The position numbers and the translations under genes are program-made. From assembly GCA_018970485.1 (NCBI GenBank), contig JAGWWH010000001.1, positions 79,951-143,950 of the forward strand: 64,000 bases of DNA, written 5' to 3'. Origin of the DNA: Pseudomonadota bacterium. GTDB taxonomy: Bacteria; Pseudomonadota; Alphaproteobacteria; Rickettsiales; UBA1997. How positions within the stretch are numbered: position 1 is the first letter of the stretch; the number at the start of each line of letters is the position of its first letter. Under the pieces are notes generated by a model. That model saw only the letters and a program-made list of their open reading frames with translations. It was not told the DNA's origin and did no database searches. This document shows, one piece after another, positions 19,480-59,482 of the stretch.

Positions 19480-19482
19480 TCT

Positions 19483-20766: not shown

Positions 20767-22015
20767 ATTTTTTCCATTTTAAAAGAAGGACGATCACTAA
20801 AATTTTTAGCAAACACGGTAGGGCGGCATAGAAAAAGGAAATTAAATTTATGTGCCCTGAATCGAGATTGCTAGGGTGATAGTCCAACAATCCCAAGATA
20901 ATTAAACTACCGGAAGCGGCGATCATTAAACCCAGTTTTGCGGTAAAATTCCAAAGTGAAAAATAGGAAGAGGTTAGATCTTTTTGCTTTGAAGTAATTT
21001 GCGCCAATAGGCTTGGTGGAGCTATTAAATCCGCACCCAAAAAAGCTCCTGAAAAAAGACAAACTAAATAAAAATACTCAGAATTTTCAGCGCTCAAAAA
21101 GTAGGCCAGAAAGAAAGTTAAAACCGATCCAATGATTGAAATTATCCAAGATTGAATGATGCCAAAACGATTAAAACAGGCCTTCCACAACGGAATCGCT
21201 AAACATGCTGAAATAAAATAAATCGACAAAAACCAGCCGTAATTTTTTTCGGCAGACAAAACATCTCGAATGTAAAAATTTAGATTAGCAGCGGGAAGGC
21301 TTACTGCTATTGAGTTTACAAGAAAGATGATCAGAAAAATTAAAAATTTTCGATTTTTCAGAACGCGAAAAAAACTAATGTCGCGACTTTTTTCTTGAGG
21401 AACCTCCTCAAAAATAACTTTTACGCGCGGCAAAAAAACAAGAGTTGCTAACAGGATTAAAGCAGCAAAGACAAGGCTTAAGCAAAGATAGCTTTGGTTG
21501 AGATTTAAATCGAAAAATTGCTCACAAATAGTTGGTAAAATGAAAGCTAAAATCATTCCGAACAAACCAAATAGCTCTTTGCTGGAATTAATAAAAATTC
21601 TTTCTCGATCGTTTTGAGCAATAATCGCTGCTAAAGATTCAAAATTAATGATGGCGAGGTTAAAGCATGTGTAAGTAAGGCTCAGAGATGCAACAAACCA
21701 AATTACTGCCAATAATTTACCAAGATTTTGTGGCGGGTTGAAGGTTAAATAAAATCCAACGACCAGAAAGATTGATGCGACGTTGATGATTTTTTTACGA
21801 CTAATTTTCTTGTGAGCCAAACTGTCCGAGAAGTAACCAAGCAAAGGATCTTGCAAGGCATCGAAGCTGCGAACGAAGATCAGTAAGATGCCGATTAACG
21901 TTAGACTGAGGTCAAAATTTCTGGCGTAGAAGTCGCTGATGTTGAGGTAGATCGGAATGCCAACAAAAGACAGAGGTAGGGCTAAAAAACTGAAAGAGAA
22001 AATTTTTGATTTCAT
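20756..22015 (-). CDS. MFS-type transporter (GPH-like)
   Basis: 419 aa, about 12 hydrophobic helices. DALQDPLLGYFSD motif in loop 2-3. Confidence 0.7.
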   Translation of the reverse strand: MKSKIFSFSFLALPLSFVGIPIYLNISDFYARNFDLSLTLIGILLIFVRSFDALQDPLLGYFSDSLAHKKISRKKIINVASIFLVVGFYLTFNPPQNLGKLLAVIWFVASLSLTYTCFNLAIINFESLAAIIAQNDRERIFINSSKELFGLFGMILAFILPTICEQFFDLNLNQSYLCLSLVFAALILLATLVFLPRVKVIFEEVPQEKSRDISFFRVLKNRKFLIFLIIFLVNSIAVSLPAANLNFYIRDVLSAEKNYGWFLSIYFISACLAIPLWKACFNRFGIIQSWIISIIGSVLTFFLAYFLSAENSEYFYLVCLFSGAFLGADLIAPPSLLAQITSKQKDLTSSYFSLWNFTAKLGLMIAASGSLIILGLLDYHPSNLDSGHINLISFFYAALPCLLKILVIVLLLKWKKYET

Positions 22016-22040
22016 CGGATTTTTTTGTTTTTGGCTATTT

Positions 22041-23648
22041 TTACCGACACAAATTCAAATCTTCGTCAATAAAATCAGCACCAACTCCTGAGCAGCCTAA
22101 GATTGAATGAAAGACATATTCGTGAGTGATTTTCTTGTGAGAGTTTTTGAGTAGATTCTTTAGTAAATCAGGATTTTCTTTTTTGTATTGGTCGGAATGC
22201 CAAACGAAAAGTGGCACTGAAATTTGTTCAAAAGGCTTATTATTTGCGCCATTGCCAATTCTACCTTCATCCTGCAGAGAAAATCCGTGATCTGGTGTAA
22301 AAAATACCACCGCATTTTCTCTGGAAAAAAGCTCAAGAATATCTTCCAAGACCTTGAAGCTGTAAACCACTGAGTTTTTGTAGGAATTGATCAATTCTTC
22401 TTTTGAGCAATCAGAAACACTTTTTGTAACCAAGCAACGTGGTGAGAATTTTGCATATTCTTCGGGGTAGCGCAGGTCGAGATTCCAATGGCTTCCGAGC
22501 AGATGGATCAAAATAAATTTGTCTTTCTTAGCTTCGGTTTCGTCGCCAATTGCCTTTTTGATGTAAGGAAGAAGGAACTCGTCGTAGCGATTACTTTTGC
22601 CTAAATCTGCGCTAATGAATTTTCCCTCGATGATTACGTCTGAAGATTTTGCCAAGAATGAGTAAGTTGAATCGAAGTATCCGTAGAGATTTTGATTGTC
22701 GATCCAGTAAGTGCCGAAGTTCAGTTTTTTAAACACATCAATCATGTTAACCGAATTTGGAAAATCTTCCCAATGGCTGTGTTTAACGTTTGTTAGTAGG
22801 CATGGAATCGACTTACGGGTTAAGGTGCCGCAAGAATAAACTTCATTAAAAAAGGTGATGTTTTTTTCTTCTTTTAATTTTGCTGGAAGCATCTCGTAGA
22901 AGTAGTCGTTACGAAGACTTTCACCAATTATGAATACTACGGTTCTAGGTTTTTTGTCGTTAGTGTAAGAGATTTTGTGACGACTGATTATTTCTGAACT
23001 TTGGCTTTTTCGTATTTTGATGTCGGAATCTTTTTTGATTTTAGCATATTTGAAGATGCTAGTAAATATGCTCACCGGAGGGTAGTTGTAGCGTATTTTT
23101 TTTACAGTGAATTCATCAAAAATTGCCACCAACAGAATCGTCAAAATCAGAATCGAGTGAAGAATTAAAAATGATTTTGAGTTGAAAGATCTTCTTCCGC
23201 TCCAAGTTAGTCGCGCCAAAAATCCAAAAATAATCGTTAGCCCTAAAGCCAAGACCGCTGTCTTGATACTTAAATATTCAAAAGTGAGGCCGCCGATATT
23301 TTCAAAGATATCGTTAACCACCCAAGCATCAATATTCTTACCTAAGAAAACAAAAAAATAGGTAACCAGTAACGATGCTAAAAATAGAATTGTCCAAATA
23401 ACCAATCCAAAGAGACCAAGCGAAAGTAAGCCAAAAGCGATAAAATATTGAACAATAAAAGCAGTTAAAACCTCGACAGCAATTTGAAATCCACCAAAAT
23501 TCTCATGAGCAGTAACAAAAGATCCTTGGTAAAACTTAACGGTAATTGGAGTAACAACAATCAAGGCCGCAAATATTGACAATAAAGCGATCAATAACCA
23601 CTGCGGATATTTTTTTAGTTTAATACTCATTAGTGCTTTTTTTTCCAA
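22041..23648 (-). CDS. phosphoethanolamine transferase (EptA/sulfatase family)
   Basis: 535 aa. N-terminal polytopic domain plus a C-terminal sulfatase-like domain with VVFIIGESLRNDYF, HLLGSHWNLDLRYP, TPDHGFSL. Confidence 0.8.
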   Translation of the reverse strand: MEKKALMSIKLKKYPQWLLIALLSIFAALIVVTPITVKFYQGSFVTAHENFGGFQIAVEVLTAFIVQYFIAFGLLSLGLFGLVIWTILFLASLLVTYFFVFLGKNIDAWVVNDIFENIGGLTFEYLSIKTAVLALGLTIIFGFLARLTWSGRRSFNSKSFLILHSILILTILLVAIFDEFTVKKIRYNYPPVSIFTSIFKYAKIKKDSDIKIRKSQSSEIISRHKISYTNDKKPRTVVFIIGESLRNDYFYEMLPAKLKEEKNITFFNEVYSCGTLTRKSIPCLLTNVKHSHWEDFPNSVNMIDVFKKLNFGTYWIDNQNLYGYFDSTYSFLAKSSDVIIEGKFISADLGKSNRYDEFLLPYIKKAIGDETEAKKDKFILIHLLGSHWNLDLRYPEEYAKFSPRCLVTKSVSDCSKEELINSYKNSVVYSFKVLEDILELFSRENAVVFFTPDHGFSLQDEGRIGNGANNKPFEQISVPLFVWHSDQYKKENPDLLKNLLKNSHKKITHEYVFHSILGCSGVGADFIDEDLNLCR

Positions 23649-25938: not shown

Positions 25939-27315
25939 TTAGGTTAAGAGAGATAGTTCGCCCACCAAGCTACTTGGACGGCTCTTCAAAATTTTTACAT
26001 CCGCGATTTTTCCGAAATATTTTTTGGCTTCTTCTTCGTTGGCGACGTCGACGATTACGGATTGGAGGTAAGGCGATTTGCCCCAGAGTTGGGTGGCGGC
26101 GCGGGCTTTCGATTTACCGGAGCTTGGGGCTTTGCGCTCGAACAAGACGGGCATGGTTTGGCCTTCTGAGCGTTGGTTGAATTCGATTTGTTGGTCGGTG
26201 AGAAGTTTTTGTAACTCGGCCAATCTTTCTTCTTTTACTTTTTCTTCGACTTGGATTTTAGCGTCTGCCGCAGGCGTTCCTGGTCTTGGGGAATATTTGA
26301 AGGAGTAGCATTGCGTGAATTTTATTTGGCGGACTAGATCCATTGTGTCCTCAAAATCTTTGTCAGTTTCTCCTGGAAAGCCGACGATGAAGTCAGAAGA
26401 CAAGCCCATGTCTGATCTGGCAGCGCGGAGTTTTTCGATGATTTTGAAATAGTCTTGTCTGGTGTGTTTGCGGTTCATTCCTTTTAAGACAGCGTTGGCA
26501 CCGGATTGGATTGGGAGGTGTAAGAAAGGCATTAATTTTTCGATGTCGCGGTGAGCGGAGATTAGGTCATCGGACATGTCGCGAGGGTGTGAGGTGGTGT
26601 AACGAATACGTTTTACGGCGTCAATTTTAGCGACTTCTTCGATTAATTTGGCGAGGCTTGCGGGTGCGCCTTTGCTGTCTAATCCGTGGTAGGCATTAAC
26701 GTTTTGTCCCAAGAAATAAATCTCGACCACACCTTGATCTACAAGGCGTTTTGCGTCATCGACAATTTTAGAAACTTCGCGCGAATATTCCGCGCCTCTG
26801 GTGTAAGGAACGACGCAGAAGGTGCAGAATTTGTCGCAACCTTCTTGTACAGTAACAAAGGCCGAGGCCCCTACTCCAGTTCTGCTCTCGGGAAGAATGT
26901 CAAATTTATTGTCGGGAATGAAATCTAAATTAATCTGTTTCTTCTTGTCGCGGATCATCTTTCCGACCAAATCTGGCAAGGTTTGGTAGCTTTCGGGACC
27001 AACAATAATGTCGACAACTTTCGAGCGTTTGAAAATTTCTTCGCCTTCCGCTTGCGCCACGCAGCCAGCAACGGCAACGATCATCTGACTTCCGCTTTCG
27101 GCTTTTTTATTTTTGTGTGGACGGATTCGGCCGAGATCTGAAAAAAGTTTTTCGCTCGCTTTTTCGCGAATGTGACAGGTGTTAATGATGACCATGTCGG
27201 CGCCTTCGGGAGAATCGATTGTTTCGTAGCCAACATTTTCCATGAGATCTTGCATGCGATCAGAGTCGTAAACGTTCATTTGGCAGCCGTAGGTTTTAAT
27301 GTGTAACTTTTTCAT
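25939..27315 (-). CDS. miaB: tRNA-2-methylthio-N6-dimethylallyladenosine synthase
   Basis: 458 aa. N-terminus MKKLHIKTYGCQMNVYDS, radical SAM CDKFCTFC (CxxxCxxC), C-terminal TRAM region. Confidence 0.93.
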   Translation of the reverse strand: MKKLHIKTYGCQMNVYDSDRMQDLMENVGYETIDSPEGADMVIINTCHIREKASEKLFSDLGRIRPHKNKKAESGSQMIVAVAGCVAQAEGEEIFKRSKVVDIIVGPESYQTLPDLVGKMIRDKKKQINLDFIPDNKFDILPESRTGVGASAFVTVQEGCDKFCTFCVVPYTRGAEYSREVSKIVDDAKRLVDQGVVEIYFLGQNVNAYHGLDSKGAPASLAKLIEEVAKIDAVKRIRYTTSHPRDMSDDLISAHRDIEKLMPFLHLPIQSGANAVLKGMNRKHTRQDYFKIIEKLRAARSDMGLSSDFIVGFPGETDKDFEDTMDLVRQIKFTQCYSFKYSPRPGTPAADAKIQVEEKVKEERLAELQKLLTDQQIEFNQRSEGQTMPVLFERKAPSSGKSKARAATQLWGKSPYLQSVIVDVANEEEAKKYFGKIADVKILKSRPSSLVGELSLLT

Positions 27316-28190
27316 TATTTAGGATCGACGAAAGATTGACTCGAAATTGTGCTGCAGCGCACCAAAGCAGAAGGAGAATCGCGGCTAATTCCATTGCCGT
27401 CTCCAAGATCGAGCACGGCAAGCTGTGGTAAATAAAAGGAATTTCTCATTAAAAGAGCGACAGTGTTTTTGCCAAAATTATTCGATTTTAAATCAAGAAT
27501 TTGCAGGTTTTTCATCAGTGGCATTGAAAACATGGCGAAGCGTTTGAGAGAAGCGTCTGTAAGGTTGTTGGCAGTAAGGCTTAAGATTTGGAGATTAGGA
27601 AGATTGGTGAAAGCGCCATTCATTAAGCGATTAAAACCTTCGTCACCGATGTTGTTATTTCCCAAATAAAGTATGCGCAGATTTTTCATGTTATGAAGAG
27701 AGCTGGCCAGCATTACGCAATCTTCAGCGCTGAGTTTAATATTGCTGAGATCAAGAATTTCGATTTTGCTCGCCAAATTTATTAGAATAAAATTCATCAA
27801 TACTCTTTTGTCCCCAATTGAGCTACCGCCGAAGTAGAAATCAGTGACTGTAGTCATGCGTGAAACGAGTTTGTTAAACTGGATTAGATCGTCCGCACTC
27901 AATTCAGTATTGCGTAAATCTAGGCTATTTACCTGCGGAAAGAATGGTGTGGTCTGAATGAATTTCAGCATCTCAGAAAGAGTGAGGCCACGATCTTTAA
28001 GCGACAAAGTGCTTGAACGAGATTTGACTATCGTCACAGGTACCGAGTTTTCTGATGAGCAGTTTCCCTGTGTTTCGATCCAAGCGCGATTTAGTTCAGT
28101 AGAAAATGCAGCTGGGTTTTCCCAAAACCTGTTGGCCTGTTGTGCATTTGCTAAGAAAGGAAAGAAGAGAATTAATAGAAAAAATTTCAT
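27315..28190 (-). CDS. secreted leucine-rich repeat protein (RNI/ribonuclease-inhibitor-type LRRs)
   Basis: Preferred start MKFFLLILFFPFLANAQQ (signal peptide) at 28190. Repeats of about 28 residues such as LRILYLGNNNIGDEGFNRLMNGAFTNLPNLQILSLTANNLTDASLKRF. Stop overlaps the miaB ATG (TAATG). Confidence 0.75.
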   Translation of the reverse strand: MKFFLLILFFPFLANAQQANRFWENPAAFSTELNRAWIETQGNCSSENSVPVTIVKSRSSTLSLKDRGLTLSEMLKFIQTTPFFPQVNSLDLRNTELSADDLIQFNKLVSRMTTVTDFYFGGSSIGDKRVLMNFILINLASKIEILDLSNIKLSAEDCVMLASSLHNMKNLRILYLGNNNIGDEGFNRLMNGAFTNLPNLQILSLTANNLTDASLKRFAMFSMPLMKNLQILDLKSNNFGKNTVALLMRNSFYLPQLAVLDLGDGNGISRDSPSALVRCSTISSQSFVDPK

Positions 28191-28318
28191 TTGATTATCC
28201 TTGTTTGTGACCATGATTTTTTGTCGTGAAAGCAGTGAAGGATTTTGTGAATTAAGGCTTCCAAGATCACTCACTAGATTCGGGATGACAGTTGTTTTAC
28301 TCAGAATAGCGGTTGTGT

Positions 28319-29791: not shown

Positions 29792-30106
29792 ATGCGCCTA
29801 ATTAACGATTTTCTAATCCGAATTTCTTCTAACGAAGTTGGCTCTGACGAGTTTGGAAACCAATATTACAAACACAAAAAAGACGAAAAAAGATTCGTCA
29901 TCTACAAAGGATTGGCAGAACCTTCGAAGGTCCCGATGGAGTGGAGAAGTTGGCTGCATTACACTATTAATTCAGTTCCAGCTTCAATCAATACTCACCG
30001 GTTTTCTTGGCAAAAAATTCATTTGCCTAATTTAACCGGAACAAAAAATGCTCACACCCCAAAAAACTCAACTAACCAGCAATATCAAGCTTGGAAACCG
30101 GAGTAA
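29792..30106 (+). CDS. NDUFA12-family protein (complex I accessory subunit homologue)
   Basis: 104 aa. GSDEFGNQYYKHKKDEKRFVIY...PSKVPMEWRSWLHYT matches the NDUFA12 signature as I recall it. Confidence 0.75.
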   Translation: MRLINDFLIRISSNEVGSDEFGNQYYKHKKDEKRFVIYKGLAEPSKVPMEWRSWLHYTINSVPASINTHRFSWQKIHLPNLTGTKNAHTPKNSTNQQYQAWKPE

Positions 30107-30110
30107 AACA

Positions 30111-30581
30111 ATGACCAAAACTAGTAATTATTTCGAAATTATCGTTGGAACTTTTGTTCTTTTTTGTGCGATTTTTTTCTTTTTTACCTCTTTTCGAAGC
30201 GCCCAAGTTGGCGAATCAAGCGGCTATTATTTAATCGCTAAATTCGACAATATTGACGGCATCAGCGCTGGCAGCGACGTAAAAATTTCTGGAGTAAAAA
30301 TAGGTACAGTCGAAGAACAATTTCTTGACGAGAAAGATTTTCGCGCAGCCTTAAAACTTAATATCAAAAACTCAGTTAAGCTGTCTTCCGATTCTTCCGC
30401 CAAAATTGCTTCGGAAGGCTTGCTTGGATCAAAATATCTTTCGATCACTCCAGGTGGAGATGAAGAAAATTTGAAAGATGGCGAAGAAATTCAGTTCACT
30501 CAATCTTCAGTAAATCTTGAAGACCTTCTTGGTAAGTTCATTTTCAGCGACAAAGAAAAAGGCAAAAATGAGAAAAAGTAA
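30111..30581 (+). CDS. mlaD: MlaD-like MCE-domain protein (outer membrane lipid asymmetry)
   Basis: Start MTKTSNYFEIIVGTFVLFCAIFFFF (TM anchor). MCE-type segment ISAGSDVKISGVKIGTVEEQ. Confidence 0.7.
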   Translation: MTKTSNYFEIIVGTFVLFCAIFFFFTSFRSAQVGESSGYYLIAKFDNIDGISAGSDVKISGVKIGTVEEQFLDEKDFRAALKLNIKNSVKLSSDSSAKIASEGLLGSKYLSITPGGDEENLKDGEEIQFTQSSVNLEDLLGKFIFSDKEKGKNEKK

Positions 30582-30975
30582 TTTTCTGTTCGGAATTTTT
30601 TTATTGCTTGCCAGCAACTCTTTTGCTCAAGAAATTGAGGTGGAAGATCCTGAAGCCGCTAATTCTTACAAGGTCGCTAACCTTCAGGTTCTAAACAAAA
30701 CTACCGCCAAAACATCCTTGCTCGAAATCAAAGTTGGTGAAAAAGCCAATTTTAGCGGCATCGATATTTCTGTTCGTAAATGTTGGCAGGCGCCTTTAGA
30801 TCAAAGGCCAGAAAGTAAAATTCTGATTGATGTTTCTGAGATCAAAATTGATGAAAAAAAAGAAGAGCGAAAAGTACGAATTTTCTACGGCTGGATTTTT
30901 GCATCAAGCCCCTCCCTTTCTGGATTGGAACATCCAATTTACGACATCGTAGCCGTGGGCTGCAAAAATAAGTAA
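30568..30975 (+). CDS. DUF2155-like secreted protein
   Basis: Start MRKSNFLFGIFLLLASNSFAQE (signal peptide). Conserved alphaproteobacterial position after NDUFA12-like/mlaD. LQVLNKTTAKTSLLEIKVGE segment. Confidence 0.55.
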   Translation: MRKSNFLFGIFLLLASNSFAQEIEVEDPEAANSYKVANLQVLNKTTAKTSLLEIKVGEKANFSGIDISVRKCWQAPLDQRPESKILIDVSEIKIDEKKEERKVRIFYGWIFASSPSLSGLEHPIYDIVAVGCKNK

Positions 30976-30978
30976 CCA

Positions 30979-31623
30979 ATGTTAAAAATTTCCCCTTCAA
31001 TTCTTTCCGCCGACTTTTCACGACTTGGCGAAGAAATAAAAAATATCGAAAAAGCCGGCGCAGACTACATCCACATTGATGTGATGGACGGAAGTTTTGT
31101 GCCGAATTTAACGATTGGCAATGAAGTGGTGAAGGCGATTAGGAAGGTTTCCAACCTGCCTTACGATGTGCATTTGATGATCAACAATCCCGACAATCAC
31201 ATTAAAAATTTTGCCGAAGCTGGTTCGGATATTATTACGATTCATGCCGAGGCCTCAATTCATCTCGATCGCAGCTTAGATCTAATCAAATCTTTCAACA
31301 AAAAAGCCGGTGTTTCTCTAGTTCCTTCAACTCACGAAGATGTTTTGGATTATGTTTTGGAGAAACTCGATTTGATTTTAGTGATGACTGTAAATCCGGG
31401 TTTTGGTGGGCAAAAGTTTTTGTCATCGCAGCTAAAGAAAATCGAAAATATCAGAAAAAAAATCGAAAAATCGGGCAGAAAAATTGAACTCGAAGTTGAT
31501 GGTGGCATCAACGAAGAAACCTCTAAAATGGTAGTCTCAGCTGGTGCAGATGTTTTGGTTTCTGGCTCCTACATCTTTGGTTCAAAAAATTACTCAGAAG
31601 CAATTTTAAAGCTGCGCTCTTAA
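30979..31623 (+). CDS. rpe: ribulose-phosphate 3-epimerase
   Basis: 214 aa. PSILSADF, HIDVMDGSFVPN, MTVNPGFGGQKF, VDGGIN. Confidence 0.93.
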   Translation: MLKISPSILSADFSRLGEEIKNIEKAGADYIHIDVMDGSFVPNLTIGNEVVKAIRKVSNLPYDVHLMINNPDNHIKNFAEAGSDIITIHAEASIHLDRSLDLIKSFNKKAGVSLVPSTHEDVLDYVLEKLDLILVMTVNPGFGGQKFLSSQLKKIENIRKKIEKSGRKIELEVDGGINEETSKMVVSAGADVLVSGSYIFGSKNYSEAILKLRS

Positions 31624-32945
31624 TGAAATATGTTGTCTACGGCCTTGGAATTTCAGGCCTCTCAGCTGCAAAATATTTGAAACAAGCTGGCAATGAAGTG
31701 ATTACAACTGACGATAGTCTAAATAATCCCGAGGCTTCGGCCAAGCCAGATCAAATTTCCTACGACTCCAAAACCATAATCAGTCTTTCTCCCGGAATTT
31801 TTCCTACGCATAAAATTTTTGATTTTGCTAAAAAATCTGGAGCAGAAATTGCTTGCGACATCGAAATTTTTTATCGCCTAAATCATCAAAATAACTTCAT
31901 CGCAATCACTGGAACGAACGGCAAATCAACTACAACCGCCCTCACCGGCTTTGTTTTTAAAGAGCTGAATATTTCTTCTGCGATTGGTGGAAATATCGGC
32001 ATTCCTTGCTTCGATTTACCGATGGATGATGAGATGACTTACATCTTCGAAACCTCTTCTTACCAACTCGATCTTCTCACCAAAACTCACTTCAAAATCG
32101 CCGCACTTTTAAATATTACGCCCGATCACCTCGATCACCATGGATCGATGGAAGCTTACATTGAGGCGAAGAAAAAAATCTTCCAAAACCAAACCGAACA
32201 AGACTTCGCTTTGATTGACGTCGACAATGAAAATTCACGAAAGGTTTTTGAAGAATTAAAAAATAACAAAAATTTCCGCGCTAAATTGATTCCGATCTCG
32301 ACGAGAAAAATTCAGGAAAATGGCGTTTCGTTAATTGCAGGAAAATTAGTTAATAAAATTGCCGGCGCTGATTCGCATCTCGAATTGAGCTCGGAATTTC
32401 TAAGCGGCCAGCACAATGATCAAAACATGGCTTTCGCCTTTGCGATTACTTACTGCTTTGGAATTTCTGATGAGAAAAAAATAATTTCTGCGATTCAAAA
32501 ATTTGAAGGCCTTCCACATCGCTGTAAAATTGTTGGACAAAAAGATGGAATAAAATTTGTTAATGACAGCAAAGCAACAAATGCAGAATCAACAGAGCCA
32601 GCGCTTAAGGCTTTTGAAAATATTTTTTGGATTCTTGGCGGCAGGCCAAAAGAAGGCGGAATTTCAATCCTTGCGCCCTATTTCAACAAAATTGCCAAAG
32701 CTTATTTGATCGGAGAAGCGACTGAAGAATTTGCGAAAATTTTGGAGGAAAATTCTGTAAATTTTGAAAAGTGTGGCGATCTGAAAAACGCCTTCAGAGC
32801 AGCTTATTTCGACGCAAAAAAATCTAGCCTAACAGAAAAAGTGCTCTTACTTTCGCCTGCCTGCGCATCGCTTGATCAATGGAAAAATTTTGAACAACGT
32901 GGCGATTATTTCTGCAAGCTAGTTGATGAATTTTGGAAATCCTGA
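31623..32945 (+). CDS. murD: UDP-N-acetylmuramoylalanine--D-glutamate ligase
   Basis: 440 aa. ITGTNGKSTT P-loop. Mur ligase central and C-terminal domains (NDSKATN, LSPACASLDQW). TAATG overlap with rpe. Confidence 0.92.
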   Translation: MKYVVYGLGISGLSAAKYLKQAGNEVITTDDSLNNPEASAKPDQISYDSKTIISLSPGIFPTHKIFDFAKKSGAEIACDIEIFYRLNHQNNFIAITGTNGKSTTTALTGFVFKELNISSAIGGNIGIPCFDLPMDDEMTYIFETSSYQLDLLTKTHFKIAALLNITPDHLDHHGSMEAYIEAKKKIFQNQTEQDFALIDVDNENSRKVFEELKNNKNFRAKLIPISTRKIQENGVSLIAGKLVNKIAGADSHLELSSEFLSGQHNDQNMAFAFAITYCFGISDEKKIISAIQKFEGLPHRCKIVGQKDGIKFVNDSKATNAESTEPALKAFENIFWILGGRPKEGGISILAPYFNKIAKAYLIGEATEEFAKILEENSVNFEKCGDLKNAFRAAYFDAKKSSLTEKVLLLSPACASLDQWKNFEQRGDYFCKLVDEFWKS

Positions 32946-35900
32946 AACAACAAAAATAACCGTAAAAAACTCAACCGCTTTCGTTGTCTTACTTTTGGTG
33001 TTTTTAGCGATTTTTTTTGCACCAAAAACTTCCTCCTCCCCTCCCAATCAAGACTGTAGTGCCGTTATTGGTACGCCTCAAGCTGGAGATAATTGTCTCT
33101 ATTTTTATCCTTTGCCTTTGTGCTCAGCTGTTCCTCGAGCTGGCTGGATTATTCCTTCGAGCTCCATTCTTGAAGCCACAACTAATCCAAATCACCGAGT
33201 TAACTGCGCCGATCTCGCTGATTTACCGCTTTGTAATCAGCTCGAGGATAACGGAGTAACCGCTTATCCACTAAAAAATTGCGTTAAAGAATGCTCTGAT
33301 ATTACAGGAAGTGGAAATCGCGGCATTGATTATGCCGTTCACAATCGTGATTGCATTAGATTTTGTGGAGATGTTGAGGAGGGAGTTACCACCTCAGGCG
33401 GCGATCAAAATTGCGTAGCGAAGAATTGTCATCAAATAGAATATAATGCTGGAAATCCTTCAGCCAGTATCGCTCCGAATCCAACAAATAATTGTAATCT
33501 TTTGCCATGCAATTTGTTGACTACGAACGAATTGAATGAAGCCAAGTTTACAAACGAGGCCACGATCAATTACGAGTATTGCAAAAACGAAAATAAATGC
33601 CTCGATTTCGCACAAACTCAATTGCCTTACCTAATCCCAAATAAGAGCTGCAAAATGCATAATTGCCGAGTCAGTTGCATAGATAATGCCACTGACGATG
33701 TGCAAAAAATTAAGGATAAGGGAGTTTCCTACACCAACGATTATCAGAACTACATCAACTCAAATTATCAGATTGGTACCGAGTCAGACACTTTGTGCCA
33801 AAGAACTTTTTGTCAGCCTGTGATTAAAAATCCTCTACACTGTTTTCCAGAAAATAACCCTGAAGCAACAATTCGTAACGAACAGTGTGATGATCCATCA
33901 ACCCCAGGCGGAATATGCAGTGGTGGATATTGCTACAAAACGATCGACTGCAATTCGGAAACAAATAACTCTCTTTGCCAATCTTCTAGCACAGCGACAG
34001 TCGGATCTACTGAAGATAGCTCGGTTAAATCTTGGTTTTATCGTCCAAAACCAATGGATAGCGCCACCAATGGATCTGGAGTTCCTCGCAATTTTGACGC
34101 CGACAGATTTTGCTACAGCAAAGATAACATGCTTGATAATAACTGGGGAGAAGATGCTTACATAACTACGATCTTCGGAAGAATTCCATTAGGCTATTGG
34201 CATCCATTTTGGGAAGATCCGAGATCGCCAGGAAAGTGTAGCGCTAACAATATCGGGGTTCGCGGAGTAGGACCTGAATATTTGTGCGGGATGAACCTCA
34301 ATATTTACAACAAACCCAATAGTTACGCTGGATATCACAGCGGCTATACCGAGACCACTTTCAACGACATAGGTGGAACAAGTATCGTTTCAGTTTGTTT
34401 GAGATTTGATGCTGGTGGCGCAATAGGAAGAAGCTGTGGCAAGAGAGAGTGCCAAGTTAGCTGCGCCTTTGGCGAGTGTAATCAGATTTGCGGTTCTGAT
34501 GAATGCGTTACTTTGGTTGTTAAAGAGGAAGATGCCGATGAATGCACCATGACCAACTCTCTCAGCGCAATGCCTGAGGGAGATTCGGTGGAGCTAGATG
34601 GAACAACTCGCGAATGCATGAAAACAATAGACGAAAAAATCAGAATAAGAGCTGTAAGATTCGATGATTACATCTGCACCTTTCTCGATATCAGAGGAAC
34701 ATTTGCGTATAGTCCGATCTATTTTGATGGATCGGAAAAAATCACTTTAGGCGGCGAAACTCCTGATACAGCGGACGATAAAACTTACTGCTTCTCTGGG
34801 ACTTACGACGAAAGCACCAGAAATTGCAATAACAGCAAAAACAGCAATGACGCAGTATCTTCCGATCAAAGATGGAGAGCCATAATGCAAATTCCTTACA
34901 TTCAAAATAATCAGCCAAGTGGCGAACCTAGGGGTTATTTGGATAAGAATGGCAGATTATTTCCTGAGCAAGGTTGTATCAAAATTGGTCATCGCATAAC
35001 GGTTCCACGCCTTTACAACCTTGCTAATATAGAAAATTCACCGCGGATATTTACGCCTCCTCTTTACATACTAAACGCCTCAACAAAAAGAGGTGGCGCC
35101 ATCTCTATTCCTTCGGGCTCACAAACATTTGGGGACACTGATTTTCACTACCCAGAAATAACAATAAATTTTGGTTCCAGCACGCAAAAGCTCAGCCTTG
35201 GTTTTGGAAAAACTGGTTACGAAGAAAGTTCTACTGATATCGATCCGCTTTCTAATGCAACTATTTCTACGGCTATCGATGGCGACATCACAGAATCTTT
35301 ATCTGCGGAAGTGATGGTGCGCAAAGAATTTGAAAACGCATCCAACCGCCCAACTTTTTGCCTTTATCAAAAAATCAAGGATGAGAATCAGACTTACTTA
35401 ACTCCGCAAAGAATTGGCTGCGTTTACAGAAAATATCCAGAAATAGACAATTCCAGAACAAGACTCTCTTCAGATAACTACTACAAACTCGTCCTTTCAT
35501 CAGATACAAATAACAGCTATTCGAGCTCAAAAATTGTTATTCGATATTTAAGCAGTTCGCTTGCTAATGCTAGCTGCGAATCAAACCCTTCTTCTTGTAG
35601 CACTCCCATAATTTTAGGAAATGACGATCCGTCTCTCGAAACTTGCGATCCACCAACTCAGCAAAGCAATTCAATCTCGGTCGAACAAAATAAAATATGC
35701 GTCAGGCGCGATGAGTGTAATAAGCTCAATAATGAGTGCATTCAAAATGAAATTAATCTCCACAACGCTAGAGCAACTAATCAATCAATAGACTCCCTTC
35801 TAACCATCCAGAATTATTGCAATAGAACCCTGCTTCCTATCTGTAACAATAAATTTGGCATTAACACTTCAAATCAGGCCACAGTCTACAATCCAAACCC

Positions 35901-38850
35901 ATCCGGAGCCACTGGTGATAATGATGCTTACGGATGGTTTAATGAACTTTGTATCACCCAAGGTTTTGAGCAGCAAAAAAAGCGAGTTGTGGCGAAGCTA
36001 ACCGATAATGGTGTTATGGGAAAATGCGTCATCGATGGAGTAACCGCTGCCGATTGTAGTGCTGGCGGTAAAAAGCCAGACTGCCCTTGTCTTGAATATG
36101 TAAACGGCACATCTCTTGCCGCAGATCAATACGATCGACTAGAAACAAGCCATGAAGCTGGTCTTTGCATCGACATACCTTTGCCGCAAGTTTGTCCGGC
36201 CATCAATCACAACCTGATACCAAATACTATTGAGGGTGATGAAAATTATATTTACAGCTCTCTACTTCAAGAACATTACGGCAACGATACTTCGCAATCT
36301 ACCAATGTGGTTCACATTTCTCATAGATATCGGACCGAAGGCTTATTAACTAATGATGGAGTGGTGATTCCAATCGCCGGACATGCCGAGTTTCCTCAAG
36401 CAATTTTCGGCTTTAACGATGTAACAGGAAGATGTGAGGGCTTCTGGGACGAAATTACAAATAGTGAAGGAGTTAAAGTTCCTCCAACAATGAGCTGCTT
36501 ATATTCTGCAGGATCGGCAATATGGGGAGAAGTGAGCAATCCTTGTGTTCGTTACTCTTGTCCTTTGGTTGATGCCTCACAAATTGACCCAAATGGATCT
36601 TATCCAAATGGTTACGGAGCTTCTGAAACTGGAGAAAATAAGGGCTCAAGCCACGGCTTTGCTAATTGGCCAGAAACTTCATTAACTAGCGATTTTGCCG
36701 TAGACTCTTCGGCGACAAGCTGCGTTACCGGATTCAAGAAAGCTAACTCAAGCATTATTATATCTAACTCCTCATCGCCAATATCCTCTAATCATAGCTG
36801 TGCGGGAGATTATGGAAATGCAAACCGAGCCGCTCTTTATTCCTGCATTAGTGGTTATAGCGGAGGCGCTTCACCAACCAGAAAATGTAATCAGACTGGA
36901 TCTTGGCAAACTCCAGAAAACTACTGCCAAAGAATTTCTTGTCCGGCAATCAACCCACCAACGCCTTCTGGATCTGACGATACTGCAAGTTGGGAACTTT
37001 GGAGCAATTCCGGTGGCGCCACCTTCCCTTCCGTTAATGCAGCTCGCAGCGAAACTTTGGTCGATGGATCAATAGTTAAATTATCCGCCACTTCAACTGG
37101 CACCTGTAATAATGATTTAGGATTTTTTCAAATTTCCGGTGGACCAGCGCCAACAAGAGTTTGTGATTATTTAGGAAACTGGAGTGCGGTAGAAAATCCT
37201 TGTATAACAAAATGTAACGCAATTTCTACTTCGACATTAGCCTCCAGCGAAGGCAACGGTCATGCTTATTGGTATGAAGCCATAAACATTCCCGTTCCTG
37301 GAGAATTACTAAGTACATCAAATGGCTGTTCTTCTCCATCAAATCCGCCAAATCCGCAATTCACCGATAACGGAGTATGCAAGACTAACGCTTTTAATGG
37401 CTGCGTTGATGGCTATTTTACATATCCTTATCCACCACTTCGTAACGCTTACGGAACAGCCTACACGCTTGGAAATTGTAAAACAGAAACTTGTCCAGCC
37501 GGAACAATTCCTAAGGACGTAAATAATGACACTAGAGCTGTCGGCAATCCCGAGCGTTATTGCAAATCAATTAACGTAGTTAGTAGTGCAAGCAGCGAAG
37601 TAAATGTTTGGACTTCAACCTCATCAAGCTGCGTAAATAGCTGTCCTGGATATGATGTTGATCCTAGAATCAATGTCGGAAAAACGGAGCACCCAGCCAG
37701 TAATAATGCAGATGGAAGTTTTAATGGAACACTAACAATCAATTGGCCAACTACAGCTTTCGGTCAAACTGCTTACATTAATTCGCCTAGTGATATTAAT
37801 ACCCATAACGGTTCTCACTATTATTATGGTAGAACCAACGGCTATTATTCTTTGTCGAGATATTGCAATCCAAATACTCATAAGTGGGAAAATCCTACTC
37901 CTTACTGCGCTACGAATAATGGACAAATCAAGGTTGGCCCATCAAATATTGCCGATGCTTTAGCAACCTACAATTCCCCAACTCCGCGCGTTGCCGTTGG
38001 ATCAACAACTGGAACGGGAACTTGTTTGTCAGGATCTTATTCTGATGCAAATGGAAGCATATCGGCCTCTGCCGCAACATGTTCTTACAAAGATGCCAAT
38101 GCCAATAACAGAATTGACGAAACTTATTTCGATACCGGTAGCGTAAAAAAATGTAATCCGATGTGCAGAAGTAGAAGCGGCGATAACTACGGAAATGGAT
38201 CAACTGACGCTACAAGTGGGGTTAATTACAAATATTACGTAGCCAACAGTCGGTTAAATCTTAACTGTAGAGACGGTTATGGTAGCACCATAATTTCTGG
38301 ATCATCGGTTAATAACTCTTACAATAGCTGTAATAGAAGCAATTACGGCGCAACAAGCGACCGTAGCCCTAATCAACCTTACACATTATGCACGCTAAAT
38401 AGCGATGGAAGCGCTTCATGGAGTACAATTTTAAATGATTGCAGCCTATGTAGAAGCTGTAGTAGAGCTACTTCCAGCATAATACCAAACAATAATAGTG
38501 TTGGTAATGGAGATAGCGCCCCTTCACAAAGCAAAGTATTCTCTGGTGAAAAAATCGTTCATTTTTATAGCAGCGGCCAGGAAAACTGTGGTAGCAACGA
38601 TGATGCAAGAGACATAACCGACTTCATAACAAACAAGTGCTCGACTAGTAGTTGGTTCAGCCTTTCTCATGGTCAATGCGTTAGAATGGGCTTTACTAGA
38701 GGCCAATCTTGTCGCAATAGCGCTGGTCAAACTCGCCACACTGACACCAATGCTTATTTTGATTTAGTTTGTTCGGACGGGGTATATGTGCCAGATACAA
38801 ATGCCAGCGCCTGCAGCGGAGCAACCAATAATATTTGTGAACGACGATAA
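32923..38850 (+). CDS. giant (1975 aa) cysteine-rich, N-terminally anchored surface/secreted protein of unknown function with Sushi/CCP-like modules
   Basis: Uninterrupted 5.9-kb ORF. One hydrophobic segment, AFVVLLLVFLAIFFA, near the N-terminus. Cys/Asn/Ser/Thr/Gly-rich throughout. No catalytic motif and no beta-barrel-like C-terminus recognised. Confidence 0.8.
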   Translation: MMNFGNPETTKITVKNSTAFVVLLLVFLAIFFAPKTSSSPPNQDCSAVIGTPQAGDNCLYFYPLPLCSAVPRAGWIIPSSSILEATTNPNHRVNCADLADLPLCNQLEDNGVTAYPLKNCVKECSDITGSGNRGIDYAVHNRDCIRFCGDVEEGVTTSGGDQNCVAKNCHQIEYNAGNPSASIAPNPTNNCNLLPCNLLTTNELNEAKFTNEATINYEYCKNENKCLDFAQTQLPYLIPNKSCKMHNCRVSCIDNATDDVQKIKDKGVSYTNDYQNYINSNYQIGTESDTLCQRTFCQPVIKNPLHCFPENNPEATIRNEQCDDPSTPGGICSGGYCYKTIDCNSETNNSLCQSSSTATVGSTEDSSVKSWFYRPKPMDSATNGSGVPRNFDADRFCYSKDNMLDNNWGEDAYITTIFGRIPLGYWHPFWEDPRSPGKCSANNIGVRGVGPEYLCGMNLNIYNKPNSYAGYHSGYTETTFNDIGGTSIVSVCLRFDAGGAIGRSCGKRECQVSCAFGECNQICGSDECVTLVVKEEDADECTMTNSLSAMPEGDSVELDGTTRECMKTIDEKIRIRAVRFDDYICTFLDIRGTFAYSPIYFDGSEKITLGGETPDTADDKTYCFSGTYDESTRNCNNSKNSNDAVSSDQRWRAIMQIPYIQNNQPSGEPRGYLDKNGRLFPEQGCIKIGHRITVPRLYNLANIENSPRIFTPPLYILNASTKRGGAISIPSGSQTFGDTDFHYPEITINFGSSTQKLSLGFGKTGYEESSTDIDPLSNATISTAIDGDITESLSAEVMVRKEFENASNRPTFCLYQKIKDENQTYLTPQRIGCVYRKYPEIDNSRTRLSSDNYYKLVLSSDTNNSYSSSKIVIRYLSSSLANASCESNPSSCSTPIILGNDDPSLETCDPPTQQSNSISVEQNKICVRRDECNKLNNECIQNEINLHNARATNQSIDSLLTIQNYCNRTLLPICNNKFGINTSNQATVYNPNPSGATGDNDAYGWFNELCITQGFEQQKKRVVAKLTDNGVMGKCVIDGVTAADCSAGGKKPDCPCLEYVNGTSLAADQYDRLETSHEAGLCIDIPLPQVCPAINHNLIPNTIEGDENYIYSSLLQEHYGNDTSQSTNVVHISHRYRTEGLLTNDGVVIPIAGHAEFPQAIFGFNDVTGRCEGFWDEITNSEGVKVPPTMSCLYSAGSAIWGEVSNPCVRYSCPLVDASQIDPNGSYPNGYGASETGENKGSSHGFANWPETSLTSDFAVDSSATSCVTGFKKANSSIIISNSSSPISSNHSCAGDYGNANRAALYSCISGYSGGASPTRKCNQTGSWQTPENYCQRISCPAINPPTPSGSDDTASWELWSNSGGATFPSVNAARSETLVDGSIVKLSATSTGTCNNDLGFFQISGGPAPTRVCDYLGNWSAVENPCITKCNAISTSTLASSEGNGHAYWYEAINIPVPGELLSTSNGCSSPSNPPNPQFTDNGVCKTNAFNGCVDGYFTYPYPPLRNAYGTAYTLGNCKTETCPAGTIPKDVNNDTRAVGNPERYCKSINVVSSASSEVNVWTSTSSSCVNSCPGYDVDPRINVGKTEHPASNNADGSFNGTLTINWPTTAFGQTAYINSPSDINTHNGSHYYYGRTNGYYSLSRYCNPNTHKWENPTPYCATNNGQIKVGPSNIADALATYNSPTPRVAVGSTTGTGTCLSGSYSDANGSISASAATCSYKDANANNRIDETYFDTGSVKKCNPMCRSRSGDNYGNGSTDATSGVNYKYYVANSRLNLNCRDGYGSTIISGSSVNNSYNSCNRSNYGATSDRSPNQPYTLCTLNSDGSASWSTILNDCSLCRSCSRATSSIIPNNNSVGNGDSAPSQSKVFSGEKIVHFYSSGQENCGSNDDARDITDFITNKCSTSSWFSLSHGQCVRMGFTRGQSCRNSAGQTRHTDTNAYFDLVCSDGVYVPDTNASACSGATNNICERR

Positions 38851-39339: not shown

Positions 39340-39539
39340 ATTTGCCTTTAAGATTTCCAGCTCTACAAAGCCGCGCCCTTCACTTAATTTTCGACTAAAT
39401 CCAATGCTTAAATCATTCGAATTACGCCAATTTCTTTTTGGATTTGTTTCGGTTCCAACATTAGGCCTGATTGGCACTAAACCACCATCATTCAAACCAA
39501 ACTCAAACAGATCCTTCCCTAAAAAATTTACAAACAACA

Positions 39540-39908
39540 ATGAAAGACCAAGAACATCATCACACTCGCCAAGAAAACTCTCCTAGAGAATACTCATCTG
39601 ATCGCCCTCGCCAAACTCGTCCAGACTCACGCAACTCATTTAAACCAAGAAAAAATTCATCAAAATTAATTGGGCAAATTTTTGGCTTAATCTACAATCT
39701 AGTTCTGCTTTATCTCGTTTATGACTTAGCAAAATCAGGTTCAGAAAAATTGGCATTAGGAATCTTTGCCATAAATGCAGCATTCATCTTCTTTGTTGCA
39801 GTCTCCGTTAAAAAATCTTTTAAACACAAACCTCACAACAGTTCTTACAGAGATGGGGGAAATAGATCTTCTCGCCCTTCTCGCTCTTCACAATCATCTG
39901 CTCGTTAA
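39540..39908 (+). CDS. small membrane protein with Ser/Arg-rich basic tails (hypothetical)
   Basis: MKDQEHHHTRQENSPREYSSDRPRQTRPDSRNSF... Two hydrophobic helices (IGQIFGLIYNLVLLYLVY, LALGIFAINAAFIFFVAV). C-terminal NRSSRPSRSSQSSAR. The track ORF starts earlier (39471) and the start is uncertain. Confidence 0.35.
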   Translation: MKDQEHHHTRQENSPREYSSDRPRQTRPDSRNSFKPRKNSSKLIGQIFGLIYNLVLLYLVYDLAKSGSEKLALGIFAINAAFIFFVAVSVKKSFKHKPHNSSYRDGGNRSSRPSRSSQSSAR

Positions 39909-40098: not shown

Positions 40099-41901
40099 AT
40101 GACTACTTTCCAAGACCTCGGACTAAATCCAAAAATCCTTTCAGCACTTGATGCCAAGGGATACACAACTCCAACACCAATACAACTTCAAGCAATCCCA
40201 CATTTACTCGAGGGTAAAGATATCCTAGGAATCGCTCAAACTGGAACCGGTAAAACAGCCGCTTTTTCTCTGCCAATAATTCACAATCTCGTAAAAAGTA
40301 ACTCACCCGTTAAAAGCGGCTGCGTACGTACTTTGATTTTAACTCCAACAAGAGAGCTCGCTTCGCAAATCGCAGAAAATGTCGAGCTTTACGGTAAAGA
40401 CTTAAATCTCCGTCATGCTGTTATTTTTGGTGGTGTTTCTGAACGTCCGCAAATCACCAACTTGCAGCGCGGCGTTGATATTTTGATCGCAACTCCAGGG
40501 CGCCTTCTTGACCTTGCGAGCCAAGGCCACATTCGCTTCATGAATCTAGAAATTTTTGTTTTGGATGAGGCAGATCGCATGCTCGACATGGGATTCATCA
40601 ACGACATCAAAAAAATCATCGCCAAGCTTCCGGCAAAAAAACAAACACTTTTCTTCTCGGCTACCATGCCTTCAGTGATTAGCGGCTTGGCGGATTCGAT
40701 TCTTAAAGATCCAATAAAAATCGAAGTAACTCCTCAATCAACAACGGTCGAGCGCATTAAACAAAGAATTAACTACGTCGAAAAATCGAACAAATTAGCG
40801 CTTTTAAAACGCATCGTAAAAGACGAAGGTGCGACAAGTGTTCTGGTATTTTGCAGAACAAAGCACGGCTCAGATCGTGTTGAAGAATTTTTGGAACGCG
40901 GAGGAGTCAAAGTTGCCGCAATTCATGGCAATAAATCACAAGGCGCACGCGAAAAGGCTTTGGGCAGTTTTCGTGATGGGACTGTGCAAGTTCTAATCGC
41001 CACTGATATTGCCGCACGCGGTATCGATATTCCTGCGATCAGCCACGTAATTAACTACGACATCCCGATGGATCCTGAAAGTTACGTTCACCGTATCGGT
41101 CGTACTGCTCGCGCTGGCAGACAAGGCATTGCGATTTCTTTTTGCGATCCAACGGAAGTTAAACTTTTGCAAGCCGTCGAAAAAGTGATAAATTACAAAA
41201 TTCCAGTCGATCAAACTCATCCATTTCACAATGTTGATGCGGCTCCAACTGCACGTGATTCAAGGCGTGACGATCGCGATTTCGACTCAAGTCGCGGTAA
41301 AAGAACTTTTGGCTATTCAGTAAGTAAAGAGCGCAGATCTTCCTCTTCTTCTCGACCATCACGTGATCGCGACGACAGAAGAGACTCATCTTCTGAGCGC
41401 AGAGCACCAAGAGAAAGGGACGATTCTTTCGGCAACACCGACAGACCTCGCTCTTCTGACAGAAAACATAAGTCTGGCGGATTACTTGACTTCATCGGAT
41501 TGGGCAAAAAGAGGTTTGAAAAATCTGATCAACCAAGAAGCAGAAGTCCTCAATCAAGCCGAAGCGGCTCTGGTTTCGGCTGGTTCAAAAAATCAGATTC
41601 ACGCGATTCGGCGCCAAGAGGCGAAAGAAGCGAATCGAGACCTGATTCTTTCGGCAATAGAGAAAGAGCAGCTCAGCGCGGAGACAGAGAAAGAGGGGGG
41701 AAAAATGATCGTTTTCGCTCAAGCGGATTTGGTAGCGATAGCAGAAGATCTTCTTCAGACAGGCCGGAAAGAAGTGAGCGTCCTCGCTCAGGCGGATTTG
41801 GTAGCAGATTATCTTCTGGAAGACCTTCATCCGGTAGAACATCTCCAGGACCTAGAAGTGGCGGAAACAGAACTGACGGAAATCGCGGAAATAAATTCTA
41901 G
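40099..41901 (+). CDS. rhlE: DEAD-box ATP-dependent RNA helicase (RhlE-like) with long Arg/Ser/Asp/Gly-rich tail
   Basis: 600 aa. Q-motif region, AQTGTGKT, DEAD, SAT, HRIGRTARAG. The last ~200 aa are low-complexity (RSSSSSRPSRDRDDRRDSSSERR..., repeated R[SG]GGFGS units). Confidence 0.9.
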   Translation: MTTFQDLGLNPKILSALDAKGYTTPTPIQLQAIPHLLEGKDILGIAQTGTGKTAAFSLPIIHNLVKSNSPVKSGCVRTLILTPTRELASQIAENVELYGKDLNLRHAVIFGGVSERPQITNLQRGVDILIATPGRLLDLASQGHIRFMNLEIFVLDEADRMLDMGFINDIKKIIAKLPAKKQTLFFSATMPSVISGLADSILKDPIKIEVTPQSTTVERIKQRINYVEKSNKLALLKRIVKDEGATSVLVFCRTKHGSDRVEEFLERGGVKVAAIHGNKSQGAREKALGSFRDGTVQVLIATDIAARGIDIPAISHVINYDIPMDPESYVHRIGRTARAGRQGIAISFCDPTEVKLLQAVEKVINYKIPVDQTHPFHNVDAAPTARDSRRDDRDFDSSRGKRTFGYSVSKERRSSSSSRPSRDRDDRRDSSSERRAPRERDDSFGNTDRPRSSDRKHKSGGLLDFIGLGKKRFEKSDQPRSRSPQSSRSGSGFGWFKKSDSRDSAPRGERSESRPDSFGNRERAAQRGDRERGGKNDRFRSSGFGSDSRRSSSDRPERSERPRSGGFGSRLSSGRPSSGRTSPGPRSGGNRTDGNRGNKF

Positions 41902-59454: not shown

Positions 59455-59482
59455 ATTTTTTGATTGAGTAATTAATTTAATT

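Follow-up and report, generated by a model that had tools for sequence, protein, structure and literature searches.

The window analysed here, a 64,000-nucleotide (nt) stretch from a bacterium of the Rickettsiales family UBA1997 (assembly GCA_018970485.1, contig JAGWWH010000001.1, positions 79,951 to 143,950), contains a single giant gene lodged between murD and purE. Its product is a cysteine-rich protein whose family is new and unannotated, combining a novel region with a known type of module. An earlier note, made from the letters of the window, had described an open reading frame (ORF) at 32923-38850 on the forward strand, and this frame is indeed there, with 1975 codons counted from a TTG and an overlap of 23 nt with the end of murD (31623..32945). 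The ATG at 32926 (codon 2) appears the likelier start, because the database copy (P0001, 1974 amino acids (aa)) and all homologues begin MN[FYL]xNPE; counted from there, the complete coding sequence is 32926..38850 (+), stop codon included, the protein has 1974 aa and the overlap with the last codons of murD is 20 nt (32926..32945, +). The overlap recurs in relatives, at 20 nt in one and 4 nt at locus L053, and at loci L001, L003, L006 and L013 murD ends at 6017 and the giant gene starts at 6001, an arrangement that looks like translational coupling inside an operon. purE begins 15 nt past the stop codon, and a scan around the giant gene found no promoter or terminator signal above chance.

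An open frame of 1975 codons in DNA of 41% G+C is impossible by chance, and the gene is real. That it might be an assembly artefact or a pseudogene, which the earlier note had considered, was rejected, the same intact frame occurring in more than 100 independent assemblies; recent horizontal acquisition was likewise rejected, the gene having a G+C content of 0.42 like its flanks and a conserved synteny.

The mature protein (first 38 residues removed) has a mass of about 209.5 kDa and a pI of 4.9. It contains 100 cysteines (5.1%), exactly the 26 previously counted lying in the first 355 residues, and it is rich in Ser (11.3%), Asn (9.8%), Thr (8.0%) and Gly (7.9%), making it the most Cys-rich and most Asn/Ser/Thr-rich protein of the window; the others have 0-2.3% Cys, except one zinc-ribbon protein of 260 aa with 4.2%. 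Lys, Arg and Glu together make up 11.7%, the lowest value among the soluble proteins of the window, although the earlier statement that they are depleted relative to every other protein went too far, as three integral membrane proteins are lower still. Motif scans of the protein found no HExxH, Walker, RGD or RTX-type motif, and GxSxG, seen in the motif scan only, is present three times. The C-terminus reads ...CSGATNNICERR, ending NNICERR, and with no Pfam match to contradict it the earlier observation that there is neither a catalytic motif nor an autotransporter-like C-terminus stands.

The N-terminus carries an export signal (32926..33039, +) in the form of a single hydrophobic segment found in every full-length homologue. 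A long basic n-region (aa 1-17, with three Lys) is followed by a 15-residue hydrophobic core, AFVVLLLVFLAIFFA (aa 18-32), and then by PKTSSS; beyond aa ~18-32 neither this protein nor its homologues have a hydrophobic segment, which bears out the claim of one anchor or signal and no further transmembrane segment. By its sequence the segment could serve as a Sec signal peptide or stay in place as a signal-anchor. In the window protein the Pro directly past the core (FFA-PK) makes a poor signal-peptidase site; distant members have classical A-x-A/S-x-A sites right before the first conserved Cys.

The cysteines behave as pairs. Among 36 diverse homologues, 79 of the 100 are conserved in at least 90%, and of 117 full-length members, counted without the signal, 100 carry an even number of cysteines (binomial p=1.7e-15). 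In an alignment of 115 sequences the non-universal cysteines are gained and lost together: the column pairs 147/163, 396/438, 1468/1485 and 1518/1523 covary perfectly (phi=1.0), 1839/1842 nearly so (phi 0.96), and 513/518 and 884/891 strongly (phi 0.83), with 12 mutually best covarying pairs at phi>=0.8 in all. Even parity, paired covariation and the universal N-terminal signal together show, on this comparative evidence, a protein whose cysteines are disulfide-paired and which folds in an oxidising extracytoplasmic compartment. The window protein thus has both features of the disulfide-bonded extracytoplasmic class, an export signal and cysteines in pairs, as the earlier note had proposed. 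Among the ORFs of the window a search for thioredoxin-type CxxC (DsbA-like) motifs found none, and the window holds no DsbA- or DsbB-like ORF. The sole thiol-redox-related gene seen there is at 3161-3868 (+) and encodes a DsbD_2-family membrane protein (107.8 bits) with an HCIGMCGP motif; directly downstream of it, three ORFs at 3876-7008 resemble the cbb3 oxidase genes ccoN/O/P in position and N-terminal sequence.

The protein had been called an orphan, and this proved wrong: more than 120 homologues of full length (25-68% identity) are spread over about 50 species-level genomes. Among 5.8 billion proteins a search gave 124 matches, nearly all full-length (1,800-2,100 aa) at 29-68% identity, and databases list every one without a name or as "hypothetical". 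A phmmer search of 1.84 billion representatives with the N-terminal 1,065 residues returned only 119 proteins, every one a giant of 1,800-4,131 aa or a fragment of one, and the N-terminal region was found in no other architecture. In a scan of GTDB species representatives the gene lies at 50 loci, all in metagenome-assembled genomes (MAGs), mostly from lakes, and labelled Rickettsiales or Alphaproteobacteria, some of the automatic labels being plainly wrong. The carriers include UBA2645, RIFCSPLOWO2_01_FULL_40_26 and C-132, the founding members of Candidatus Gamibacteraceae (Schön et al., PMC9352585).

The gene is also largely fixed in place. The block NDUFA12-mlaD-DUF2155-rpe-murD-X-purE, where X is the giant gene, is kept in about 40 of the 50 loci, down to 27% identity, and it is found again on a 284-kb contig and at the loci of two highly diverged relatives (3,712 and 2,415 aa); in all, the synteny persists down to 25-31% identity. 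Given this distribution and the conserved synteny, the gene is an ancient, vertically inherited core gene that defines Ca. Gamibacteraceae, and it is found in this family of freshwater and aquatic Rickettsiales alone. The synteny itself probably reflects low rearrangement rather than function, because the genes of the block are functionally unrelated. There are exceptions: at L047 and L050 purE lies between murD and the giant gene; L050, the most divergent lineage, has a giant gene of only 931 aa, shortened or split, followed by a separate Cys-rich ORF; one MAG (CAZUPN01) has two paralogues of 2018 and 1944 aa (L014 and L029), both outside the murD-purE context; and a locus labelled Rickettsiaceae (L041) has a 1503-aa version adjoining uvrB. 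A 1945-aa member with 28% identity lies on a contig binned as "Lentimonas sp." of the Verrucomicrobiota (L042), most probably through misbinning and not through gene transfer. Some distant relatives are about twice as long (L051 or P0202, 4131 aa; L052 or P0191, 3712 aa; P0198, 3704 aa), and at L052 a 203-aa ORF with no Pfam match sits between murD and the giant gene.

Compared across the same loci, the giant protein of the window matches its relatives at a median identity of 35%; the corresponding medians of its neighbours are 66% (MurD), 83% (Rpe), 82% (PurE), 73.5% (MlaD), 58.5% (NDUFA12) and 50.5% (DUF2155). The giant protein is therefore the fastest-evolving product of the operon, changing about twice as fast as its neighbours while keeping its length, Cys framework and module order. 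Such fast change on a fixed framework is the pattern that would be expected of an exposed interaction protein.

To look into its architecture I modelled the protein with AlphaFold2 as two tiles, giving each a family alignment of 51 sequences. The mean predicted local distance difference test score (pLDDT) was 84.9 for Tile A (aa 36-1100) and 87.1 for Tile B (aa 1085-1974), and both had a predicted template-modelling score (pTM) of 0.57, so that the local folds are confident and the packing between domains is not. The N-terminal ~1,050 residues fall into three parts. The first (aa 44-352; 33055..33981, +) holds 26 Cys, nearly all of them invariant, in short motifs of the type NC-x(5-8)-LPLC, has a weak internal repeat (aa 41-76 against 100-138) and is modelled as a mostly irregular, Cys-knotted structure with short helices (pLDDT 80-90). 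The second is a central, β-rich and Cys-poorer region (aa ~365-880; 34018..35565, +) with the highest conservation in the protein (0.57-0.64), modelled as long β-hairpins (pLDDT ~90) and marked by the motifs SWFYRPKP, IPYIxNNxP, LYNLANxxNSxKLFxPPLYI and TDFHYPEIxVxFG. The third is again Cys-rich (aa 884-1084; 35575..36177, +), with a predicted helical hairpin at aa ~930-976 and two invariant motifs, AYGWFNExC and TPREAGLC, which served as search patterns for the family. Foldseek with Tile A against PDB and BFVD gave nothing with E<0.001 and nothing below E=0.03, the scattered β-propellers and β-barrels that appeared (probability <0.15) not being interpretable, and Pfam and NCBIfam gave no match to the region, whole or tiled. 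The searches thus show a region of some 1,050 aa, about 55% of the protein, that as modelled has no known relative in PDB, BFVD, Pfam or NCBIfam, and for this part the earlier statement that no described family fits holds good.

It does not hold for the remainder. From aa 1085 to 1848 (36178..38469, +) the protein consists of at least seven enlarged Sushi/CCP-like modules with the pattern C-P...C-x-x-G-[FY]...C...G-x-W...C. Their approximate limits, all on the forward strand, are 36178-36555 (M1), 36550-36936 (M2, aa 1209-1337), 36931-37212 (M3), 37204-37641 (M4), 37633-37917 (M5), 37909-38175 (M6) and 38155-38469 (M7). Foldseek with Tile B against PDB placed CCP-repeat proteins in all of the top 22 positions, 12 with E<=0.001 and the best being CR2 (3e-7), the others including factor H, factor XIII B, Crry, DAF/CD55, β2-glycoprotein I (β2-GPI), CD46, PAPP-A and the EphA2 CRD, at 12-14% identity in the alignments. 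Four further lines agree. Internal repeats were found by hhalign at aa ~1157-1213, 1255-1340, 1385-1430, 1490-1573, 1600-1662, 1687-1750 and 1780-1845, with probabilities up to 97%. M2 taken alone reaches 22.4 bits with the Pfam Sushi profile (PF00084; cut-off 20.7, E=1.6e-4), aligning to positions 17-56 of its 56, and M5 alone matches HRM, a domain of Sushi fold, at 21.9 bits. Of 24 homologues compared with Pfam, nine match Ephrin_CRD near its cut-off and two pass for Sushi. Finally, a profile of M2-M3 compared with PDB sequences had Sushi proteins for all of its nine top matches, none individually significant. From the Foldseek result and these four lines, a Sushi-like fold is shown, at the level of predicted structure, to be present in aa ~1085-1848, or the C-terminal 40%.

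The likeness is nonetheless a distant one in sequence. The other six modules fall below Pfam Sushi detection, the full-length protein has no Sushi match, and its sole match in a full-length Pfam scan is HRM at E=0.035. The hallmark pattern is visible in M1-M5 and M7, M5 having only three Cys; it is seen, for example, in C1212-P...C1266-VTGF...C1321...GSW1327...C1334 and in C1339-P...C1394-NNDLGFF...C1413...GNW1419...C1426, and the framework Cys and Trp vary little or not at all across 36-51 homologues. Like the Sushi/CCP/SCR arrays of CR2, factor H, DAF/CD55 and β2-GPI, the array is a head-to-tail series of disulfide-bonded β-modules with the same Cys/Trp signature, and the ephrin-receptor CRD (PF25599) and the hormone receptor domain of class-B G-protein-coupled receptors (PF02793) are related folds of the Sushi type. 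Unlike known arrays, its modules are 89-146 aa long rather than the usual ~60, through large insertions between the first and second Cys, and carry extra Cys pairs; furthermore, the array is bacterial and is joined to a region of 1,050 aa that is not known from any Sushi protein. Sushi modules are otherwise typical of animal extracellular proteins, where arrays of them form extended rods and serve in protein and glycan binding. Searches of the literature for Sushi-domain proteins in bacteria turned up nothing of relevance. By my own rough estimate the rod would measure about 25-30 nm if extended. Some relatives insert β/γ-crystallin modules or SUEL-lectin-like modules, the latter below threshold; in P0202 and P0198 such matches, to the SUEL-type (galactose/rhamnose) lectin, lie near aa 2000.

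The protein ends in a variable C-terminal domain (aa 1849-1974; 38470..38847, +), a small α/β unit with 8 Cys. It is the least conserved part (0.21-0.29 against ~0.55 elsewhere), is modelled as strands and helices at tile positions 793-889 (pLDDT 54-88), and shows no Pfam match, β-barrel, hydrophobic tail or known sorting signal.

I also compared the protein with known classes of large bacterial protein. Searches of PDB sequences with the single giant sequence and with a family profile gave no match and, as the earlier note had anticipated, neither these nor the Pfam and NCBIfam searches revealed full-length homology to a characterised family, the Sca and RTX classes included. An autotransporter of the Sca type is not indicated, there being no match to PF03797, a C-terminus of NNICERR and a modelled last 100 aa that form a small α/β unit. 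RTX proteins exported by a type I secretion system (T1SS) differ in that no RTX/HemolysinCabind match was found and all members of the family have the N-terminal signal. Nor is it TpsA (FhaB-like), as its N-terminal tiles lack a PF05860 match and its neighbours are murD and purE, not TpsB. Sca autotransporters, FhaB/TpsA and the RTX/Bap adhesins do resemble it in being very large, in having a modular repeat rod, in evolving fast, in occurring in host-attached lineages and in their presumed attachment role. Unlike them, however, it has no β-barrel, two-partner secretion (TPS) domain, RTX repeats or C-terminal T1SS signal, its repeats are of another type, and it has 100 Cys where these adhesins are typically Cys-poor. 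An S-layer protein was rejected, S-layer proteins being normally free of Cys.

What does such a protein do? The reading I favour, with a confidence a little short of even, is that it is an extracytoplasmic protein that binds host surfaces, an adhesin, since it is exported, disulfide-stabilised, rod-containing and fast-evolving and belongs to an epibiotic lineage. Members of GTDB family UBA1997 were seen attached to cryptophyte algae by catalysed reporter deposition fluorescence in situ hybridisation (CARD-FISH), and the family is described as freshwater, without an ATP/ADP translocase and sister to the Deianiraea lineage (preprint 10.1101/2023.01.31.526412). Gamibacteraceae, sister to the ectosymbiont Deianiraea, have the same position and traits as UBA1997 (Schön et al., PMC9352585). 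In the proposed mechanism the export signal would direct a modular protein of ~210 kDa through Sec, after which it would be disulfide-bonded. Behind the signal would come ~1,050 residues of Cys-framed domains, a Sushi rod of at least seven modules and a small, fast-evolving C-terminal domain. The disulfide framework would lend stability outside the cell, the rod would serve as spacer and interaction surface, and the whole would tether the epibiotic bacterium to the surface of a eukaryotic (cryptophyte or protist) partner. Its final location (surface or periplasm), its route across the outer membrane and its function in adhesion are here inferred.

Several points weigh against this proposal. 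The chief weakness is that surface exposure in a diderm goes unexplained, because no recognisable outer-membrane translocation or anchoring device is present: the Pfam searches and inspection of the N-terminus found no autotransporter barrel, TPS domain, T1SS signal, lipobox or sortase-type signal. The gene forms part of a housekeeping operon and is directly coupled to murD, which could point to a role in the envelope, and the N-terminal part is well conserved, which is atypical of arms-race adhesins. FhaB/FhaC and type IV pili are already the published adhesion candidates of the clade (Gamibacteraceae literature including Castelli et al. 2024), and the giant protein is not mentioned in the UBA1997 preprint, in Schön et al. 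or in Castelli et al. 2024. Moreover, that UBA1997 and Gamibacteraceae are the same group is itself only probable; I drew it from the two papers because their descriptions match (sister to the Deianiraea lineage, aquatic or freshwater, no ATP/ADP translocase).

A bolder form of the adhesin proposal, which I consider somewhat unlikely, is that the protein is the family-defining attachment organelle of Gamibacteraceae and a new class of bacterial adhesin, with a novel disulfide-framed head of ~1,050 residues on a Sushi/CCP rod, oxidised in the periplasm and brought to the surface by a route undescribed for Rickettsiales. If this were true, the protein would mediate the epibiotic phase that came before intracellular life in the evolution of Rickettsiales and would offer a molecular handle on that transition. 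Gamibacteraceae and Deianiraea stand where extracellular host-attached life is thought to have come before intracellular parasitism. The gene is among the largest in genomes of ~1-1.5 Mb, was overlooked by published genome comparisons and is a specific candidate, open to experiment, for a part in the clade's attachment or envelope biology. The protein is also a deep-rooted bacterial example of the Sushi/CCP type, relevant to the origin of "eukaryote-like" modules.

The best-surviving alternative, although I think it unlikely, is a structural protein of the envelope or periplasm, held in the inner membrane by an uncleaved signal-anchor, with its conserved N-terminal domains next to the membrane and its Sushi rod spanning the periplasm, whether as a disulfide-stabilised scaffold or ruler tied to cell-wall synthesis or as a cross-linked component in the manner of chlamydial OmcB/OmcA. 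It would make sense of the start codon overlapping murD, a linkage kept to ~31% identity, of a constitutive-looking operon shared with mlaD and DUF2155 (envelope lipid transport genes), and of the lack of a recognisable outer-membrane export device. The Pro past the hydrophobic core of the window protein, a poor signal-peptidase site, agrees with an anchor, and a rod of at least seven modules at my estimate of ~25-30 nm is on the scale of the periplasm. However, the hydrophobic core is only 15 residues long and the distant members have canonical cleavage sites. The argument from gene order is weakened because the whole block is syntenic in spite of its functionally unrelated genes, probably through low rearrangement, because purE intervenes at L047 and L050, and because several copies, including the two paralogues of one MAG, lie elsewhere. 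Furthermore, the gene evolves twice as fast as murD, which would be unusual for a core envelope scaffold, and Pfam scans of the window protein and 24 homologues detected no peptidoglycan-binding domain.

The comparison with Chlamydia deserves a closer look. OmcB and OmcA are Sec-exported proteins with ~4-5% Cys in an obligately host-associated bacterium, and they may have a dual structural and adhesive role. The giant protein resembles them in being Cys-rich and exported, and it too may be structural and adhesive by way of envelope disulfides. On the other hand, it is four times larger and has no sequence or Pfam relationship to them (no Chlam_OMP6 match was found in the window protein or the 24 homologues), and where OmcB and OmcA are cross-linked, its even Cys counts and covarying Cys pairs point to bonds within the molecule.

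A secreted toxin, effector or enzyme is an improbable reading. The N-terminal part would then have an unrecognised activity (glycan- or cell-wall-degrading, or pore-forming), which the Sushi array and C-terminal domain would target to the host, and the protein would leave the cell by Sec export, periplasmic oxidation and then a dedicated system; pertussis toxin, for instance, leaves the periplasm through a VirB-type type IV secretion system (T4SS). The conserved central region and a set of invariant polar residues (E202, K224, H245, D341, R493, R507, R573, R575, D588, K800, E920, E1007 and E1077) speak for it, but Cys, Gly, Pro and aromatic residues of the framework account for most of the invariant positions. 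Foldseek gave a weak and non-significant likeness to β-propeller sialidases, yet no catalytic motif or family emerged from Pfam, NCBIfam, the PDB sequence search or the fold search. Genes of an rvh-type T4SS are near, with a VirB6-like ORF in the window (51015-54941) and VirB3 near homologues, but this is mere proximity within 64 kb.

Finally, a strict host mimic, that is, a complement-regulator-like protein taken from an animal host to interfere with complement-type immunity, would explain why the best structural matches are complement regulators (CR2, factor H, DAF, Crry, CD46), but it is very improbable, as these bacteria are known or suspected to partner with protists and algae, which have no complement system, the modules are 89-146 aa with large insertions, the sequence likeness is marginal (22 bits to Pfam Sushi, 12-14% Foldseek identity) and the modules are vertically inherited family-wide, which speaks against a recent transfer.

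Some other genes of the window are worth recording. The ORF at 51015-54941 (+) encodes 1308 aa with a lipoprotein-like N-terminus (LALPLFSC) and a TrbL/VirB6 domain at aa 367-581 (Pfam, 74.7 bits; no NCBIfam match); it is similar to the very large VirB6 paralogues found in the rvh T4SS of Rickettsiales, and its ~700 C-terminal residues have no assigned domain. About 5 kb upstream of the operon, at 27315-28274 (-), lies another exported protein with eukaryote-like repeats, a protein of 319 aa with a signal-like N-terminal segment, 10.3% Asn and leucine-rich repeats (LRR_4, LRR_8). Downstream of purE, an ORF of 145 aa at 39471-39908 (+) begins with a low-complexity stretch rich in His, Ser, Arg and Pro and contains two hydrophobic segments; it has no Pfam match and only a spurious NCBIfam match, and its position is conserved at L007. 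ORFs without annotation, noted by position only, also lie 3' of purE on the P0007 contig (125 aa) and at L052.

Within the operon block, the ORF of the MlaD homologue at 30048-30581 (+) starts inside the NDUFA12-like gene (29792-30106), its real start probably being the Met at ~30111 (MTKTSNYF...), and the DUF2155 ORF (30517-30975) overlaps the end of mlaD. The DEAD-box helicase at 40099-41901 (+) has an unusually long low-complexity tail of ~200 residues rich in Arg, Ser, Asp and Gly at its C-terminus, and the overlapping ORFs called there on either strand are probably spurious, a product of compositional bias. Two DUF3833 paralogues are also present, one at 20239-20766 (-) with 206 bits and a lipoprotein-type signal and the other at 58876-59598 (-) with 88 bits; the first lies within a minus-strand run of ORFs (15736-23648) that also holds an EptA-like sulfatase-family protein and a chalcone-isomerase-like protein.

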